Source of the DNA: Acetivibrio ethanolgignens
Lineage (GTDB): Bacteria; Bacillota; Clostridia; Lachnospirales; Lachnospiraceae
Assembly: GCF_001461035.1 (NCBI RefSeq)
Contig: NZ_LNAM01000024.1
Span: forward strand, 16,145-56,144
Length of the DNA: 40,000 bases
Direction: 5' to 3'
The position numbers were made by a program, and so were the translations under genes. The first letter of the stretch is position 1. The number at the start of each line of letters is the position of its first letter. Below the pieces are notes generated by a model. It did not search any database, had not been told where the DNA came from, and worked only from the letters and a program-made list of their open reading frames with translations. This document shows positions 5,322 through 10,613 of the stretch, one piece after another.

Positions 5322-5762
5322 TTAAGACTTCTGGCAGTCACAGGCAGCAGGCTTTACATCAAAACCAGGATTGAAGGCATAGAAATTCTTGAAATTCAAG
5401 TCATCCTGGACTCTTCGGAGAGCTTCGCCGAAACGCTGGAAATGAACCAGTTCTCTCTGGCGGAGGAAGCGGATTGGGTCGCAGACTTCAGGATCCTTTA
5501 CCAGCCGGAGAATATTGTCATAGGTGGAGCGTGCCTTTTGCTCGGCAGCCAAATCCTCAACCAGGTCGGTGATAGCATCACCCTTGGACTGGAATTCACA
5601 GGCATTAAACGGAATGCCTCCGGCAGCCTGCGGCCATAGACCGACCGTATGGTCAACATAGTAGTTTGCAAAGCCGGTGTTTTCGATTTCCTCCGGCGTC
5701 AGGTCGCGAGTCAGCTGGTGAACGATGGTAGATATCATTTCCATGTGTGCCAGCTCATTAGC
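5322..5762 (-). pseudogene. Manganese catalase (CotJC family), 3' fragment only, truncated by prophage insertion
   Basis: Translation ...ANELAHMEMISTIVHQLTRDLTPEEI...AAEQKARSTYD...IRFLRQRELVHFQRF matches the region of Mn catalases/CotJC starting at the TEE(F/L)AH(L/M)EMI metal-binding helix. The roughly 65-70 N-terminal residues are missing. The frame is closed by TGA/TAA at 5763-5768. Confidence 0.85.
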
Positions 5763-5782: not shown

Positions 5783-7426
5783 CTATAACAATAACTTTAC
5801 ATTAATTTCAAACGGTGTTTCCGACCAATTGCCGCCTGCTTTCAGCTTAACATCCTTCTGTGTATCTTTTTTTAATCTTTGTGACTGTTCTCTCCTGTAT
5901 TCAATTCTGCTAATACAGTTTTTTAATAACTGATTCTTTTTCTGTGCAGATGCATCAGGATTTCTTAGTGCGGAAAGAGCATCTTTAAATTTTATGATTT
6001 TTTCTTCATAAGAAATTGGCTCTGGCATTGATGCATAAGCTTCTCGTAAGGAATTTTGAACTTCTTCTTTCTCCTTTAAAAGTTTTTCATTGAGTTGCTT
6101 AAATATCTCTTGTGGCATTCTATTTGAAGGGTCAGGGTCAGCCTGTGCCTCCCACTGTGCTAGTTCCTTAGCTTGCAAATCTTGGAGCTTTTTTTCAAGG
6201 TGTTTTATTATGTCTGCTTGAATTTTAGCAGAGTCCTTACCATCATTTCTAAGTAAAATTTCAAAATCATGAATAGAATCTTCCAGAACTTCACATACCT
6301 TTTCTATTAATTCATCGTATAAGCAAGAGGTTGTGTGGCAATACTTTTGTCCATCGCATAATAGTCTTGGAGAGCAGCGTTCGCTTCCATCTGAATTTTT
6401 ATAGAATCTCAAAGACATTGCTCTGCCGCAGCTACAATATAAAAGACCTGCCAGTGGATTTCTGATTTTGGTTTTTGCCTTTGCTCTATGATTTCTGCCT
6501 TGCTTTTCCTGTGCGGCTTCAAAGAGTTCTTCAGAAATTATAGCTTTATGCCGGCCTTCATAGATTAGGAACTCTCCCATGCGTGCCTTAGGCCTTGTCT
6601 TAATAATTTCACTGTCCTCGACGACAGTTACAGTTTTTCTCCAGTTCCATTTTACCTTTCCGATATAATGTATATTTTCAAGCATATCTTTCAGAGCGGC
6701 AGGGGACCAGTGTATACCTTTAGGCGGTTTGATTCCCATATCGTCCAAATAATTACATATACTGGCCCTTCTCATGTCTTTATTTACATATAATTCAAAA
6801 ATCATACGGATAACGTCGGCTTGCTCAGGATTTTCAACCAGGGTAGGACATTTCCTTTTCCCATCCAGAATAAAGGCTTTATCATAGCCATATGGAGGAA
6901 CAGAACCGATATAATTGCCCTGACTGACTGAAAGTAGTCTGCCTCTGCTCAATATCTTTTTGGTGTACTCCAGATAATCATTTCCGCGTTTTAACTCTCT
7001 TTCAAAGGCATCCCAGTCATATTCATCCTGCAAATCATAAATCCTTTGTGGAGTGATAATTAGGGTGTGAGTATGTTTAAAAAGCTTCATTAGCCGACCA
7101 ATGTCCTCTAAATCACCTCTTGTCAGACGTTGAGGCTCTACAATGCATACAGCTTTGATTTTAGGAGATTCTATCTGCCTGAGTACTTTATTGATTTCTG
7201 GTCTTTCCTTTAATGTTTCCCCAGAAACAACTTCTCTATATTTATTTTCCTCCGGTATCTTTTCACCAAGGCTTTTTTCTGCCCATTCATCCAAAATAGT
7301 TTCATGTTTCTCCAAGACTTCTTCAACAGACAGCATAGGATCATCAGAACGGGATTTCCTCAAATATACAATTATTTCATCTTTTTTTAGGTTTTCTAAA
7401 TTATATTTCATAAATTCATAGTTCAT
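5783..7426 (-). CDS. Large serine recombinase (phage integrase)
   Basis: 547 aa. N-terminal resolvase domain with catalytic Ser context IIVYLRKSRSDDP. Recombinase domain (VPPYGYD, VENPEQADVIRMIFELY). Cys-rich zinc ribbon (LLYCSCGRAMSL...CDGQKYCHTTSC). C-terminal coiled coil. Confidence 0.95.
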   Translation of the reverse strand: MNYEFMKYNLENLKKDEIIVYLRKSRSDDPMLSVEEVLEKHETILDEWAEKSLGEKIPEENKYREVVSGETLKERPEINKVLRQIESPKIKAVCIVEPQRLTRGDLEDIGRLMKLFKHTHTLIITPQRIYDLQDEYDWDAFERELKRGNDYLEYTKKILSRGRLLSVSQGNYIGSVPPYGYDKAFILDGKRKCPTLVENPEQADVIRMIFELYVNKDMRRASICNYLDDMGIKPPKGIHWSPAALKDMLENIHYIGKVKWNWRKTVTVVEDSEIIKTRPKARMGEFLIYEGRHKAIISEELFEAAQEKQGRNHRAKAKTKIRNPLAGLLYCSCGRAMSLRFYKNSDGSERCSPRLLCDGQKYCHTTSCLYDELIEKVCEVLEDSIHDFEILLRNDGKDSAKIQADIIKHLEKKLQDLQAKELAQWEAQADPDPSNRMPQEIFKQLNEKLLKEKEEVQNSLREAYASMPEPISYEEKIIKFKDALSALRNPDASAQKKNQLLKNCISRIEYRREQSQRLKKDTQKDVKLKAGGNWSETPFEINVKLLL

Positions 7427-7499
7427 ATTACCACTCCTATCTTAAAATTTATGAAAAATAGTATAAAAAATACACCTACTTGCCAGAACAGGTGCAGGA

Positions 7500-7538
7500 G
7501 TGATATAATATGACTTGTCTAGGGAGATATTATATCAC
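7500..7538. promoter_or_regulatory. Perfect 12-bp inverted repeat upstream of the integrase gene
   Basis: GTGATATAATAT (7500-7511) and ATATTATATCAC (7527-7538), separated by 15 nt. Each arm contains TATAAT on one strand. It lies 74-112 nt upstream of the integrase ATG. Confidence 0.35.
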
Positions 7539-7568
7539 TTTGGCTTGTCCGGTATAGTATCTATAAAA

Positions 7569-7603
7569 GCCGTTTCTGTTGGTAGCAGAGGCGGTTTTTA
7601 TTT
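7569..7603. terminator. Hairpin plus T-run immediately downstream of the Abi gene
   Basis: GCCGTTTCTG (7569-7578) / CAGAGGCGGT (7586-7595). The pairing includes G-U pairs on the plus strand and two mismatches on the minus strand. Flanked by T-runs on both strands. Located directly after the stop codon at 7604. Confidence 0.45.
7579..7599. repeat. Cassette boundary repeat R2, copy a (TTGGTAGCAGAGGCGGTTTTT)
   Basis: 20 of 21 identical to 9182-9202. Lies directly downstream of the Abi gene stop. Confidence 0.8.
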
Positions 7604-8617
7604 TTATAAAAATCTACGCTCAAAGAGGTTATTTAGGCGAGAAAATAAGTCATTTGGAAATCCAAATACTTCAAAAACATTTTTAGTGTTAAAATGAGTA
7701 TCTTGATTAGCATAAGGAGAAAGAAGCGAATACAATTCTTCATAAAAATTTCGTAAGACATATTGGTCATTTAATAAAATGTTAAGAGCAAGCAATACAG
7801 CCATAACATCGTTTTGCCCCATCTTAGAATTATATTCTTCTTCTATAATTGTATTAAAACTAAGTGTCAATAGCTGCTTTTTAGGAAGTTGCGGTAGGTT
7901 TAATGCACTAAATGTTCTATTTCCATGTGCAATTTTGTTTCTATATTCTTTAGTAAGTTCAAGAGATTTTCTCATAAATTCTTTAGTTTCTTCAATAGTA
8001 AGGATGCCAGAAGAAATAAAAGAATTACAAATAGACTCTTTATCACAGCTTTTCAGTATGTTATACCATTCAATAGTTAAACCATAAGAAAGATTTGTAA
8101 TTAAAATCCAAGCTGGAATATGATTACGATGGTTAATGTAGTGCTGCATACTTGGATTATTTCTTGACTGGTGAATACTTTCTTTTAAACCAATCAGGAT
8201 ATTGATACGTTTTCTATTGGAGTTTGTATAATTGCTTTTGCATAAATAGTCACTAGGGTTAGAGAAACTTCTGTCACTGGCGTCTGTAAATACACCATAT
8301 TTTTCTGATACCAGATATGATATTCTTGATTTTAAAGCTTTTTCTAAATACAAAATATACTTAAAAATTATGCTGTTTAAAGATACATCCAAAAGATGGA
8401 GTGTATATAACTCTTCAAATTTAGTACCATTAATAAAATCATCGGAATCTGGAATTTGAAGAAATGTATTTTTGTATGCATTAATTAACCCATAGTAAGA
8501 AAGATTTTGCAGAGCAGTTATCGCAAACTCCTTGTCTTCAACAATGATATTACGACTTTCCATAAGCGCAATCATTTGTTCATATGTTTTGAATGGTTTA
8601 TCATATGTGTTGTTCAA
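7604..8617 (-). CDS. Abi_2 family (AbiD/AbiF-like) abortive-infection protein
   Basis: Motifs DKPFKTYEQMIALMESRNIIV, LSYYGLINAYKNTF, FEELYTLHLLDVSLNSIIFKYILYLEKALKSRISY and NKIAHGNRTF match the Abi_2 family as I remember it. Preferred start is TTG at 8617, 9 nt after GGAAGGAGGG. The tracked ORF extends to ATG 8758 but would run through a terminator-like hairpin and overlap the upstream gene. Confidence 0.85.
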   Translation of the reverse strand: MNNTYDKPFKTYEQMIALMESRNIIVEDKEFAITALQNLSYYGLINAYKNTFLQIPDSDDFINGTKFEELYTLHLLDVSLNSIIFKYILYLEKALKSRISYLVSEKYGVFTDASDRSFSNPSDYLCKSNYTNSNRKRINILIGLKESIHQSRNNPSMQHYINHRNHIPAWILITNLSYGLTIEWYNILKSCDKESICNSFISSGILTIEETKEFMRKSLELTKEYRNKIAHGNRTFSALNLPQLPKKQLLTLSFNTIIEEEYNSKMGQNDVMAVLLALNILLNDQYVLRNFYEELYSLLSPYANQDTHFNTKNVFEVFGFPNDLFSRLNNLFERRFL

Positions 8618-8622
8618 AAGAA

Positions 8623-8711
8623 AAAAACCCTCCTTCCAAAACTGGTAAGAGGGTTTTTCGCTAGTCATCTCAACAACGACCATTTCTGTTGAGATAATCT
8701 TACCAGTTTTG
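8623..8711 (-). promoter_or_regulatory. Structured RNA leader (nested helices plus terminator-like hairpin that includes the RBS) between the small ORF and the Abi gene
   Basis: On the minus-strand RNA: P1 is CAAAACUGGUAAGA (8711-8698) with UCUUACCAGUUUUG (8650-8637), 14 bp perfect. P2 is AUCUCAACA (8695-8687) with UGUUGAGAU (8675-8667), 9 bp. The terminator-like stem is AAAAACCCUC (8658-8649) with GAGGGUUUUU (8632-8623), followed by UUCUUUUG. The P1 3' strand lies in the terminator loop. Confidence 0.5.
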
Positions 8712-8721
8712 AGATATAATG

Positions 8722-9135
8722 TCAAGCTAATTTTATAGGGTCTCCAATTTTTATACATACATTTTCAGGCGTTAATTTTTGGATATCATCACGGTTTATA
8801 TTTAATGGAACTGCTACCTTTCTTGTGGTTTCCAAAAGAGGCGATAAAGCCGCTGCGGTAGAGGAAGAAGTTTTTTCCATTAGAGGTTTTTGGCACACGG
8901 AAAAGGTTTTTTCTGTACGAATAACTTCCAACTCATCTTTGCAAAAGATATAACGCTCAAGTGGTGTACCATCGAGATCTAAGATTTCTTCGCCAATCTC
9001 ATAGACTTGTACGATATCACCTATTTTTAAAACGCCTCTGCCGGCATTTACAATAATGGTTCGGCTGTCAATAATACGAATGACATTTGCAATATAATAA
9101 GGACCATACTTCTTTTTCATTTCGTCTTTGTTCAT
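8722..9135 (-). CDS. Hypothetical 137-aa protein, first gene of the Abi operon (no domain recognised)
   Basis: ATG preceded by AAAGGAG at 9-nt spacing. No TM segment or HTH. Beta-rich-looking sequence with a repeated KIGD(I/P) element near the N- and C-termini, and a Ser/Thr/Ala linker (EKTSSSTAAALSPLLETT). Confidence 0.75.
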   Translation of the reverse strand: MNKDEMKKKYGPYYIANVIRIIDSRTIIVNAGRGVLKIGDIVQVYEIGEEILDLDGTPLERYIFCKDELEVIRTEKTFSVCQKPLMEKTSSSTAAALSPLLETTRKVAVPLNINRDDIQKLTPENVCIKIGDPIKLA

Positions 9136-9162
9136 TGTTAAAATCTCCTTTTATTTTACATT

Positions 9163-9202
9163 AATTCCATAACTCCTAAATTTGGTAGAAGAGGCGGTTT
9201 TT
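9163..9202. repeat. Abutting boundary repeats R1 copy a (9163-9181, AATTCCATAACTCCTAAAT) and R2 copy b (9182-9202)
   Basis: R1 is identical to 9858-9876. R2 is 20 of 21 identical to 7579-7599. The pair sits exactly between the two accessory cassettes. Confidence 0.8.
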
Positions 9203-9226
9203 GCTATTTAAAGGAATGTGTATATT

Positions 9227-9505
9227 CTAGCAATAATATTGAATTTCTCCAAAATAAGCAATCCATTTTTCAATAATTTCTGTACTCCTGGCTTCAATCA
9301 TTCTCATCATATTTCGAAGTGTTTTTTCTGGTATTTTAGAATTATTGTGGCAAAGATAACACTTACCCTTACGGGTAATCCATATTTTTGTTGCATTGCC
9401 GGAAGGATGCCCATTGGAAATATGGACATGTATCGGTTCAAGTGGCTTATTTTCATTTGTCCAAAAGTAAACCCAGTATGGACCAAACCTAAAGATTTGC
9501 GGCAC
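9227..9505 (-). CDS. DUF4160 domain protein
   Basis: GTG start at 9505 preceded by GGAAGGGGG. VPQIFRFGPYWVYFWTNENKPLEPIHVHISNG...ATKIWIT...EIIEKWIAYFGE matches the DUF4160 pattern (F-F-x-NE-x-PxHVHV...K-W...W-x-YF). The 156-aa tracked version would overlap the upstream gene. Confidence 0.8.
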   Translation of the reverse strand: MPQIFRFGPYWVYFWTNENKPLEPIHVHISNGHPSGNATKIWITRKGKCYLCHNNSKIPEKTLRNMMRMIEARSTEIIEKWIAYFGEIQYYC

Positions 9506-9761
9506 CTTGGAAGCCCCCTTCCTGTGAAAATTCCAAAATGAGATTGGCTGTTGATTCAATGATTTCCTGAATTTTTTTAATGTCATTTTGGGAGAATCCA
9601 TAAATATCTTCCCAAGTGTAATCAGGAAGCCAGCAGGTAGCATGTTTAAAACAGACTTTTTCGTCTGGCTTTTCAATATATACTTTGACGCGACCATCTG
9701 GTTTCATTTCAGAATGTACAATTTCGGTTTCATCATTTAGTGTCATAAATGGGTACATCAT
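9489..9761 (-). CDS. Hypothetical 90-aa protein, upstream partner of the DUF4160 gene
   Basis: ATG preceded by AAAAAGGAG. Its 3' end overlaps the DUF4160 GTG start by 17 nt, suggesting translational coupling. No domain recognised. Confidence 0.65.
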   Translation of the reverse strand: MMYPFMTLNDETEIVHSEMKPDGRVKVYIEKPDEKVCFKHATCWLPDYTWEDIYGFSQNDIKKIQEIIESTANLILEFSQEGGFQGAANL

Positions 9762-9893: not shown

Positions 9894-10613
9894 TTATTCT
9901 ACTTTGTCTAAAACTTTTCCAATAACTTTTACATTCTCTAAATTTTTGATATTTTTATATTCTTTATTAATGGAAATAAGCTCATTTTCACCCAATTCCT
10001 TTATATAACAATTATTTCCGTCAATAAATATTCCAATTTCGCCTACAGATAATTCAATTGTTTTCTTTACAAATACCTTATCTCCATCGTTATATACAGG
10101 CTTCATGCTATCCCCATTTACCCCAATAACAAAATCTGCGTTTCTTGATTTTTCGTTATCTTCAACTTCTATAAAATCAGTTGGAATATCACTGAATAAA
10201 TATTCTCCTGTTCCGGCAGATGCAAGTTTTTGATAGTAGCTGATTATTCTGGTCGGCTTTTCTTCTTTTTTGGATTTCATTCTTTCTGTTTCCCATTGGA
10301 GAATGGTATTAACGTGTTCTTGACCAATAGGGTCCAAATCTCTATATTTCTTTAATAATTCTTGTTCTCCGTATTTTAAAATGAATTTTGAGTCTGGATA
10401 TATTCCATAAATATCATTAATAGAAACATTCAATATTTCACAAACTTCAAATAGTATATCAATAGTAGGACAATTTGCTCCAGTTTCCCAATTAGATATT
10501 CTAGAAGGAACAACACCTAATCTTTTTGCTAATTCTTTTTGGCTAAGACCAGCCTGTTCTCTATATTTACCAATATTTTTAGAAATATTTTTTTTGATTG
10601 TATCGTCACTCAT
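9894..10613 (-). CDS. CI-like prophage repressor (XRE HTH plus S24 LexA-type peptidase domain)
   Basis: 239 aa. N-terminal HTH LSQKELAKRLGVVPSRISNWETG. C-terminal S24 motifs GVNGDSMKP...GDKVFVKK. Divergent from a Cro-like gene. Confidence 0.95.
   Translation of the reverse strand: MSDDTIKKNISKNIGKYREQAGLSQKELAKRLGVVPSRISNWETGANCPTIDILFEVCEILNVSINDIYGIYPDSKFILKYGEQELLKKYRDLDPIGQEHVNTILQWETERMKSKKEEKPTRIISYYQKLASAGTGEYLFSDIPTDFIEVEDNEKSRNADFVIGVNGDSMKPVYNDGDKVFVKKTIELSVGEIGIFIDGNNCYIKELGENELISINKEYKNIKNLENVKVIGKVLDKVE

Follow-up and report, generated by a model that had tools for sequence, protein, structure and literature searches.

A predicted non-coding RNA gene with its own promoter and terminator ahead of an Abi_2 phage-defence toxin gene in Acetivibrio ethanolgignens

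AbiF proteins of C. difficile and of a Prevotellaceae bacterium are known as type III toxin-antitoxin systems, in which an upstream non-coding RNA (ncRNA) neutralises the toxin (PMC12373285, PMC13064643). In AbiF systems a sigma-A promoter gives rise to a short ncRNA, RCd22 or AbiFr, most transcription stops at a terminator located just upstream of abiF, and the ncRNA binds and blocks the HEPN dimer (PMC12373285, PMC12737573, PMC13064643). Upstream sequence is required for the function of AbiF and AbiD-like systems (PMC11381338). For L. lactis AbiD1, published accounts describe a strong promoter, a terminated transcript of ~50 nucleotides (nt), a hairpin that sequesters the ribosome-binding site (RBS) and expression by read-through (Anba 1995 as cited; PMC2661086; PMC11381338). 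HEPN toxins of the AbiF/AbiD family with RNA antitoxins are, according to papers citing the work, proposed ancestors of Cas13 (Zilberzwige-Tal 2025, as cited in PMC12737573, PMC13064643). Here we describe a related leader in a 40,000-nt stretch of the Acetivibrio ethanolgignens genome (contig NZ_LNAM01000024.1; referred to below as the window), located on the minus strand between the TGA stop of a small open reading frame (ORF; 8724-8722) and the TTG at 8617 that begins an abi gene. To judge from its sequence, a small gene for a non-coding RNA, equipped with a promoter and a terminator of its own, precedes a phage-defence toxin gene here. The arrangement is that of the known AbiF/AbiD RNA-antitoxin leaders, of which this one is a new variant in both sequence and structure.

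The abi gene (7604-8617, minus strand) encodes 337 amino acids (aa) from TTG 8617 and belongs to the Abi_2/HEPN toxins (Pfam Abi_2, 1.4e-33; PADLOC AbiD, 2.9e-44), with a match to PbAbiF (PDB 8VZ6) at 1e-7. Its HEPN motif RNKIAH (R226-N-K-I-A-H231), which has the catalytic Rx4H pattern, is invariant in 31 homologues. An RNA antitoxin was among the ideas raised in the initial annotation of this leader, and it fits with a HEPN Abi_2 relative of PbAbiF, known family members being type III toxins with an upstream ncRNA. Loci encoding Abi relatives were collected from genomes, viral contigs and metagenomes (243 in total), and 230 nt upstream of the Abi N-terminus were extracted for 227 of them. The leader architecture and motif of the window are present in about 120 of these 227 Abi_2 loci, corresponding to 75 unique leaders. 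The comparisons below use a MAFFT alignment (A2) of 54 non-redundant leaders; the proteins encoded downstream share 33-100% identity with the Abi of the window. These leaders would represent a second, uncatalogued RNA class for the AbiF/AbiD family, widespread in prophages of gut Lachnospiraceae/Clostridia.

Three helices had been read from the minus strand of the leader, and all three are present. Positions 8711-8698 (CAAAACTGGTAAGA) are the perfect reverse complement of 8650-8637 (14 bp, referred to as P1), 8695-8687 are perfectly complementary to 8675-8667 (9 bp), and a terminator helix, 8658-8649 with 8632-8623, belongs to a hairpin with 16-nt arms that are 88% complementary, a GUUU loop and the tail U7CUUUU. 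The claim that so much complementarity is unlikely to be accidental is well founded: the folding energy of the 126-nt leader is -36.2 kcal/mol compared with -22.6 +/- 3.2 kcal/mol in dinucleotide shuffles (z = -4.3; 0 of 200 as good), and this is the only 14-nt perfect inverted repeat with a gap of 3-100 nt in the 40-kb window, while composition-preserving shuffles yield 0.03 per window. The 3' strand of P1 (8650-8637) takes in 8 nt of the terminator 5' arm and 2 nt of its 3' arm. Since P1 and the terminator share 8650-8643 as well as the loop and the top of the 3' arm, they are alternatives; of the two arrangements originally offered, mutually exclusive folds or an H-type pseudoknot, the first stands and the second does not.

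The leader also contains a promoter. A promoter scan lists TTGACA-17-TAAGAT with TG on the minus strand, that is TTGACA-17-TGgTAAGAT at 8725-8697, and the consensus of the 54 leaders is TTGAC(A), a 17-nt spacer and TGnTAAGAT. The -35 box TTGACA (8720-8725), of which TTGAC is invariant in 54/54 leaders, overlaps the upstream ORF, whose TGA stop (8724-8722) falls within the box. In the extended -10 TGgTAAGAT (8697-8705; hexamer 8702-8697), T24, A25 and T29 are invariant while T21 and G22 are at least 90% conserved. From the position of the -10 and the mapped start of RCd22 (PMC12373285), transcription is predicted to begin at about 8690/8689. Conservation at the RNA level begins exactly at this predicted start (~8690) with the segment AACAGAAAUGG (8680-8690), in which A41, A43, U44, G45 and G46 are invariant in the 54 leaders. 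The predicted short RNA would consist of AACAGAAAUGG, a hairpin H1, CUAGCGAAAA and a terminator T, in this order, placing in silico a structured ncRNA with its own promoter on the same strand as the toxin gene and directly upstream of it.

Hairpin H1 (8663-8681, minus strand; GGUCGUU / GAUGACU, 6-7 bp with a 5-7 nt loop) is paired in 99.2% of alignment cells with compensatory changes at 4 of 7 pairs, and it forms in the minimum free energy (MFE) structure of the short transcript. Its stem varies among homologues, for example GUUGCC/GGCGAC, GGCCGUU/AAUGGCU and GGCUG/CGGCU, and its flanks, A.AUGG...CU, are invariant. H1 and the terminator taken jointly are 95.5% paired, with 109 double-change cells compared with 27.7 +/- 4.5 in shuffled alignments (0/500) and with 44-62% pairing when the partners are slid. 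We infer that H1 is the predicted Abi-binding motif of the antitoxin. An exact-pattern scan of viral contigs with the H1 sequence returned a single locus, this pattern being too strict to be useful. The 9-bp hairpin of the initial annotation (8667-8695, minus strand; 8695-8687 / 8675-8667) was rejected as a conserved element, as it is paired in 54.9% of cells in homologues, the same as in shuffles; the conserved hairpin is 8681-8663 instead. The 9-bp hairpin is a window-specific alternative to H1, and its 5' arm is mostly upstream of the predicted start. An 8-nt direct repeat, TTGAGATA (UAUCUCAA on the minus strand), was observed at 8689-8696, around the predicted start site, and at 8709-8716, just 5' of the P1 5' strand, and the 3' arm of the 9-bp hairpin is able to pair with either copy.

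Terminator T (8615-8658, minus strand) has in the MFE fold a stem 8658-8643 / 8638-8623, the loop GUUU and a U-tract at 8627-8618 leading into TTG 8617-8615. Its helices are 93.5-94.1% paired in the 54 leaders with changes on both sides at 11 of 14 pairs, so structure and covariation both point to an intrinsic terminator between the predicted ncRNA and the toxin ORF. The Shine-Dalgarno sequence (SD) of abi, read as GGAGGG at 8628-8633 on the minus strand, is inside the T 3' arm. In the alignment this arm always holds a G-rich SD, and after the U-tract comes an ATG, TTG or GTG start codon. A terminator that buries the Abi RBS, as first proposed for the window, is therefore a conserved and covarying feature of the homologous leaders.

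The 5' strand of P1, CAAAACUGGUAAGA (8698-8711, minus strand), consists of the promoter spacer and the first five bases of the -10 hexamer, and its 3' strand (8637-8650, minus strand) runs from the upper 5' arm of T across the loop to the second nucleotide of the 3' arm. In addition to the perfect 14 bp found in the window, about 11 bp are conserved with covariation. In an ungapped 14+14 alignment anchored on MAFFT columns picked without reference to P1, 81.9% of cells are paired compared with 71.8 +/- 1.1% after shuffling and 31-57% after sliding, and double-change cells number 105 compared with 52.8 +/- 6.2 (0/500). Covariant pairs across loci include AACUGAUAAGA/UCUUAUCAGUU, AAGCUGAUAAGA/UCUUAUCAGCUU, AAAGCAGUAA/UUACUGCUUU and UAUAAAUGGUAAGA/UCUUACCAUUUAUA. 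Duplexes between promoter and terminator average -15.0 kcal/mol for cognate and -10.4 kcal/mol for non-cognate combinations. Spacer positions 3-5 and terminator-loop nucleotides are paired in 81-89% of loci, while direct-repeat identity to the 3' arm side is only 28-30%; the possibility that the -10 region is a copy (direct repeat) of the T 3' arm was rejected on these figures. U·G pairs are frequent (13/53 sequences at one position), which favours an RNA of the abi sense strand over a DNA-level or antisense explanation. Covariation, suggested at the outset as a check, is thus found for H1, the terminator and P1, which is a real alternative to the terminator, and not for the 9-bp hairpin. The pairing of P1 follows from this covariation, and from the pairing we infer a putative antiterminator role. 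Complementarity of promoter and terminator in other registers was also found in other Abi_2 subfamilies, namely in Streptococcus phage Javan374 (AGAUAGAAGG/CCUUCUAUCU, from the -10 to the start site), a TATAAT-type clade (L156/L141) and Trichococcus (L032).

Because the P1 5' strand is inside the promoter, RNA made from that promoter does not include it, and it is present only in RNA started upstream. The ORF that ends in the -35 box (8722-9135, minus strand) encodes 137 aa, and 67 of 75 unique leaders have a homologue of it immediately upstream in the same orientation. In 52 of the 54 aligned leaders, the -35 is preceded, at a distance of no more than 41 nt, by the end of an ORF of 70 codons or more on the same strand; in 28 of the 54, the TGA stop of this ORF falls inside TTGACA. 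With the ORF ending so near the -35, a further terminator would not fit in between, and transcription of the upstream gene must therefore continue across the promoter sequence and into the leader. The 137-aa ORF has no Pfam, NCBIfam or PADLOC match. Its AlphaFold2 model (33 homologues; predicted local distance difference test, pLDDT, 81) is a beta-barrel with a disordered linker at 88-102 and weak structural neighbours. This always-adjacent ORF with a predicted beta-barrel may be a third component, a candidate sensor or modulator.

Taken together, we consider it probable that the prophage carries, as a moron, a phage-defence toxin-antitoxin module of the AbiF/AbiD type (type III-like), in which this region supplies the RNA component and gates expression. 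The invariant sigma-A promoter (8725-8697) would constitutively start RNA at about 8690, and an ncRNA of ~65-75 nt, comprising H1 and T and ending in the U-tract just before the TTG, would be made in excess. By homology with AbiFr and RCd22, this short ncRNA would bind and neutralise the HEPN RNase Abi. Most transcripts from the internal promoter would be halted by T before the TTG, and since the SD is inside the T 3' arm, the rare read-through copies would be poorly translated. RNA begun upstream, in the small ORF or the cI operon, would carry the P1 5' strand, which could pair with the T 5' arm and loop before the T 3' arm emerges. P1 would then block nucleation of the T hairpin, polymerase would pass into abi and the SD would be transiently freed.

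The hairpin-nucleation model is the accepted account of intrinsic termination, and the kinetic step proposed for P1 derives from it: with the upper 5' arm and loop of T sequestered in P1, nucleation would be delayed until G96-G98 leave the polymerase, after the U-tract. When nascent read-through RNA is folded up to the end of the P1 3' strand, P1 is the MFE structure in 47/49 loci, and likewise in the window. Two promoters and one switchable terminator would in this way set the toxin:antitoxin ratio, and it seems that only transcripts coming from the upstream gene could get past T. A further proposal, to which we give a little less than an even chance, is that T is origin-selective with its antiterminator hidden in the ncRNA promoter and that, with the upstream beta-barrel ORF, the locus makes up a three-part Abi_2 module with an RNA antitoxin class absent from Rfam. 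If true, the toxin gene would be transcribed only by polymerases from the upstream gene, the antiterminator being encoded in the internal promoter. Such an arrangement bears on how toxin expression stays low yet inducible in the AbiF/AbiD family.

AbiF_Cd/RCd22 and PbAbiF/AbiFr share with the window an Abi_2/HEPN protein with Rx4H, the order of promoter, short structured RNA, terminator and toxin, a prophage location, and an RNA more conserved than the protein. However, the RNA of the window has one hairpin with the invariant flanks A.AUGG...CU and not the hairpin CCCGCC-A-AGC...GCU-CAAAUC-GGCGGG of the Rfam abiF motif (RF03085), which is defined by a 6-bp stem, an A bulge, an AGC/GCU stem and a 3' CAAAUC internal loop with a gathering score of 37 bits. 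Scanning for this motif, as had been suggested, gave no match in the window at the gathering score, on 8450-8900 at E <= 10 or in 18 homologous loci, although the positive controls scored: both RCd22 motifs in phiC2 (37.6 and 19.5 bits) and a Phocaeicola plasmid, at 59.1 bits directly upstream of a PbAbiF-like gene. This points to a different RNA motif on an AbiFr/RCd22-like design. Further differences of the window are that the terminator incorporates the SD and start codon, that promoter and terminator are complementary through P1 and that a conserved upstream ORF is attached; also, the module is located between cI and int, while the AbiF module is in the lysis module. Distant Abi_2 subfamilies (loci L056-L081 and others) have other conserved upstream RNAs in the same promoter-hairpin-terminator layout, for example UGAGUGGUGCUCAAGAAACUUUCGAAGCCUUGAGUCAUUUUUU and (A/G)UGAAA-hairpin types, and RF03085 did not match the upstream RNAs in those loci that were scanned. 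The Rfam skipping-rope RNA (RF02924, 40-42 bits) was detected near the Abi gene in two loci, L002 (4093-4161, plus strand) and L025 (5491-5570, minus strand), and was absent from the window.

Similarities to L. lactis AbiD1 include an Abi_2-family gene, a strong promoter, a terminated short transcript, a sequestered RBS, read-through-dependent expression and the need for upstream sequence. Compared by its description, AbiD1 differs in having the RBS in a separate weak hairpin after the terminator and in translation activated by phage Orf1 and cold, and in the accounts consulted no promoter-terminator pairing or upstream partner ORF is reported for it, unlike in the window. Lactococcus plasmids were not among the tblastn matches. 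ToxIN/AbiQ has the same order of RNA antitoxin gene, terminator and toxin, with the terminator setting the RNA:toxin ratio; ToxI, however, consists of tandem 34-36-nt repeats processed into pseudoknots, and the toxin fold in the window is HEPN and not ToxN. No ToxI-type tandem repeats were detected by Tandem Repeats Finder in 8400-9200 at a score of at least 30, and H1 is present in a single copy. In IS10 fold-back inhibition and in the start-site-dependent leaders of pyrC and pyrG, the transcription start decides whether a complementary strand is included and hence how the leader folds. Externally started transcripts are silenced in IS10, whereas in the window they would escape termination, and here the antiterminator strand lies within the -10 and spacer of the internal promoter. 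A promoter-embedded antiterminator or the 137-aa upstream ORF was not found described in the searchable literature, so both the origin-selective terminator and the conserved partner ORF are apparently undescribed.

Several points weigh against the proposed gate and RNA antitoxin. In full-length RNA at equilibrium, most loci favour T over the P1 fold, with a mean difference in stability of 5.6 kcal/mol (only 0.9 kcal/mol in the window). Antitermination must therefore be kinetic, and the SD would be buried again after refolding. Some Abi_2 subfamilies are without promoter/terminator complementarity (z about 0). The leader RNA does not match RF03085, the sole curated AbiF RNA model, and the 137-aa ORF falls in phrog_27728, a group of unknown function. 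The start site, the short RNA and termination stand as predictions. Finally, shuffle tests can give inflated results when the sequences are related; the slid controls and the direct-repeat control speak against such inflation here.

It is possible that P1 is a real pairing in upstream-started RNA with another job, such as an RNase III duplex, stabilisation of the 3' end of the small-ORF mRNA, or masking of part of the terminator or antitoxin. The covariation of P1 would agree with this, as would the thermodynamic preference for T in most loci and the fact that P1 closes a domain containing H1. However, what is conserved in P1 is precisely the pairing to the 5' arm and loop from which T nucleates, P1 forms first in 47/49 loci, and a helix of 11-14 bp is short for RNase III; we regard such a role as rather unlikely.

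Another alternative, and one proposed in the initial annotation, is a classical single-transcript attenuator or riboswitch, in which all leader transcripts hold the P1 5' strand and a ligand, protein or ribosome chooses P1 or T. P1 covaries, and in the window P1 and T are exclusive and near-isoenergetic (-34.4 vs -36.2 kcal/mol). A weak sub-threshold likeness to leader-type Rfam models (PyrG, PyrR, Phe) might be added, though it stems from the terminator and was set aside as terminator noise; Rfam scans of the window and 18 related loci gave no family and no riboswitch match for the leader RNA. What was overlooked in that annotation is that the P1 5' strand doubles as the spacer and -10 of a promoter that is invariant among the leaders. 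RNA conservation begins at the predicted +1, and the mapped start of homologous systems is just downstream of such a promoter (PMC12373285). There is also no aptamer-sized domain between the P1 strands: the sole conserved element is a 19-nt hairpin with short flanks, and the antiterminator strand is in promoter DNA. An attenuator of this kind thus appears quite improbable.

The ncRNA could also act in trans, its T 5' arm and loop pairing either with non-template DNA of the promoter, as a form of autorepression, or with the small-ORF mRNA at its 3' end. Complementarity of the ncRNA to the promoter and upstream mRNA region is indeed conserved, but the terminator hairpin, which is very stable, ties up those nucleotides in the free ncRNA, and pairing in cis is kinetically far more likely. 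To our knowledge, there is no bacterial precedent for an RNA that targets the -10 of its own promoter, and we consider action in trans very improbable. Barely credible is an ordinary terminator of the upstream gene with a 14-bp repeat due to chance or quasi-palindrome correction, or a leader that is the N-terminus of a 384-aa Abi, even though no stop interrupts ORF 7604-8758 within the leader and homologues are often annotated by gene callers with such an extension, because only 0.03 such repeats are expected per window, the helices covary across 54 loci, and the coding signal fails as described next.

An in-frame stop is present between the -10 and the Abi start in 48/54 leaders, and the distance from AUGG to the start codon falls in all three phases (18/15/21 among the 54). 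The extension of Abi homologues over the leader by gene callers gives rise to a pseudo-peptide, 'MVVVEMTSxxPSYR..EGG.FSF', which is more conserved than the true Abi N-terminus, reflecting constraint at the nucleotide level. The long ORF 7604-8758 is accordingly rejected as an artefact, and the original view of the region as a structured, non-coding RNA is upheld by the stops and the covarying helices. For annotation this means that the leader RNA is repeatedly mistranslated as an N-terminal extension of Abi proteins. A false extension of 20-47 residues was observed in the ORF of the window, in many homologues and in Javan374_0057 (locus L083); this error of annotation is systematic.

On the minus strand, the gene order is a CI-like repressor gene (helix-turn-helix/S24; 9894-10613), a DUF4160 gene region with two overlapping ORFs (9227-9761), the 137-aa ORF, the leader, abi (Abi_2) and a large serine integrase gene (5783-7426), while a cro-like gene is on the strand opposite to the cI-like repressor and abi genes. 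The locus is a prophage lysogeny module bearing an abi defence moron. A megablast search of phage records with 7400-9300 gave no match. The region 9227-9761 (minus strand), upstream of the small ORF, comprises an ORF of 156 aa, whose C-terminal half contains DUF4160, and one of 90 aa that has no matches. Situated between cI and the Abi module, this pair resembles a small cassette of two genes, and L085 is the only other locus to have it.

The end of the integrase gene is adjoined by a 140-aa ORF (5322-5744, minus strand), which matches positions 70-196 only of the 284-position Mn_catalase profile, with the profile match beginning at the first residue of the ORF. This partial match suggests that the serine-integrase prophage appears to be inserted inside a cotJC-like manganese-catalase gene; a motif search of the window did not find the 5' half of this gene. 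Between the abi stop (7604) and the integrase start (7426), terminator-like hairpins were observed at 7563-7601 (plus strand) and 7496-7471 (minus strand), and the promoter scan lists a strong promoter-like site on the plus strand at 7480-7509. The hairpins on both strands together with the promoter-like site at 7471-7601 suggest that abi and int are separate transcription units.

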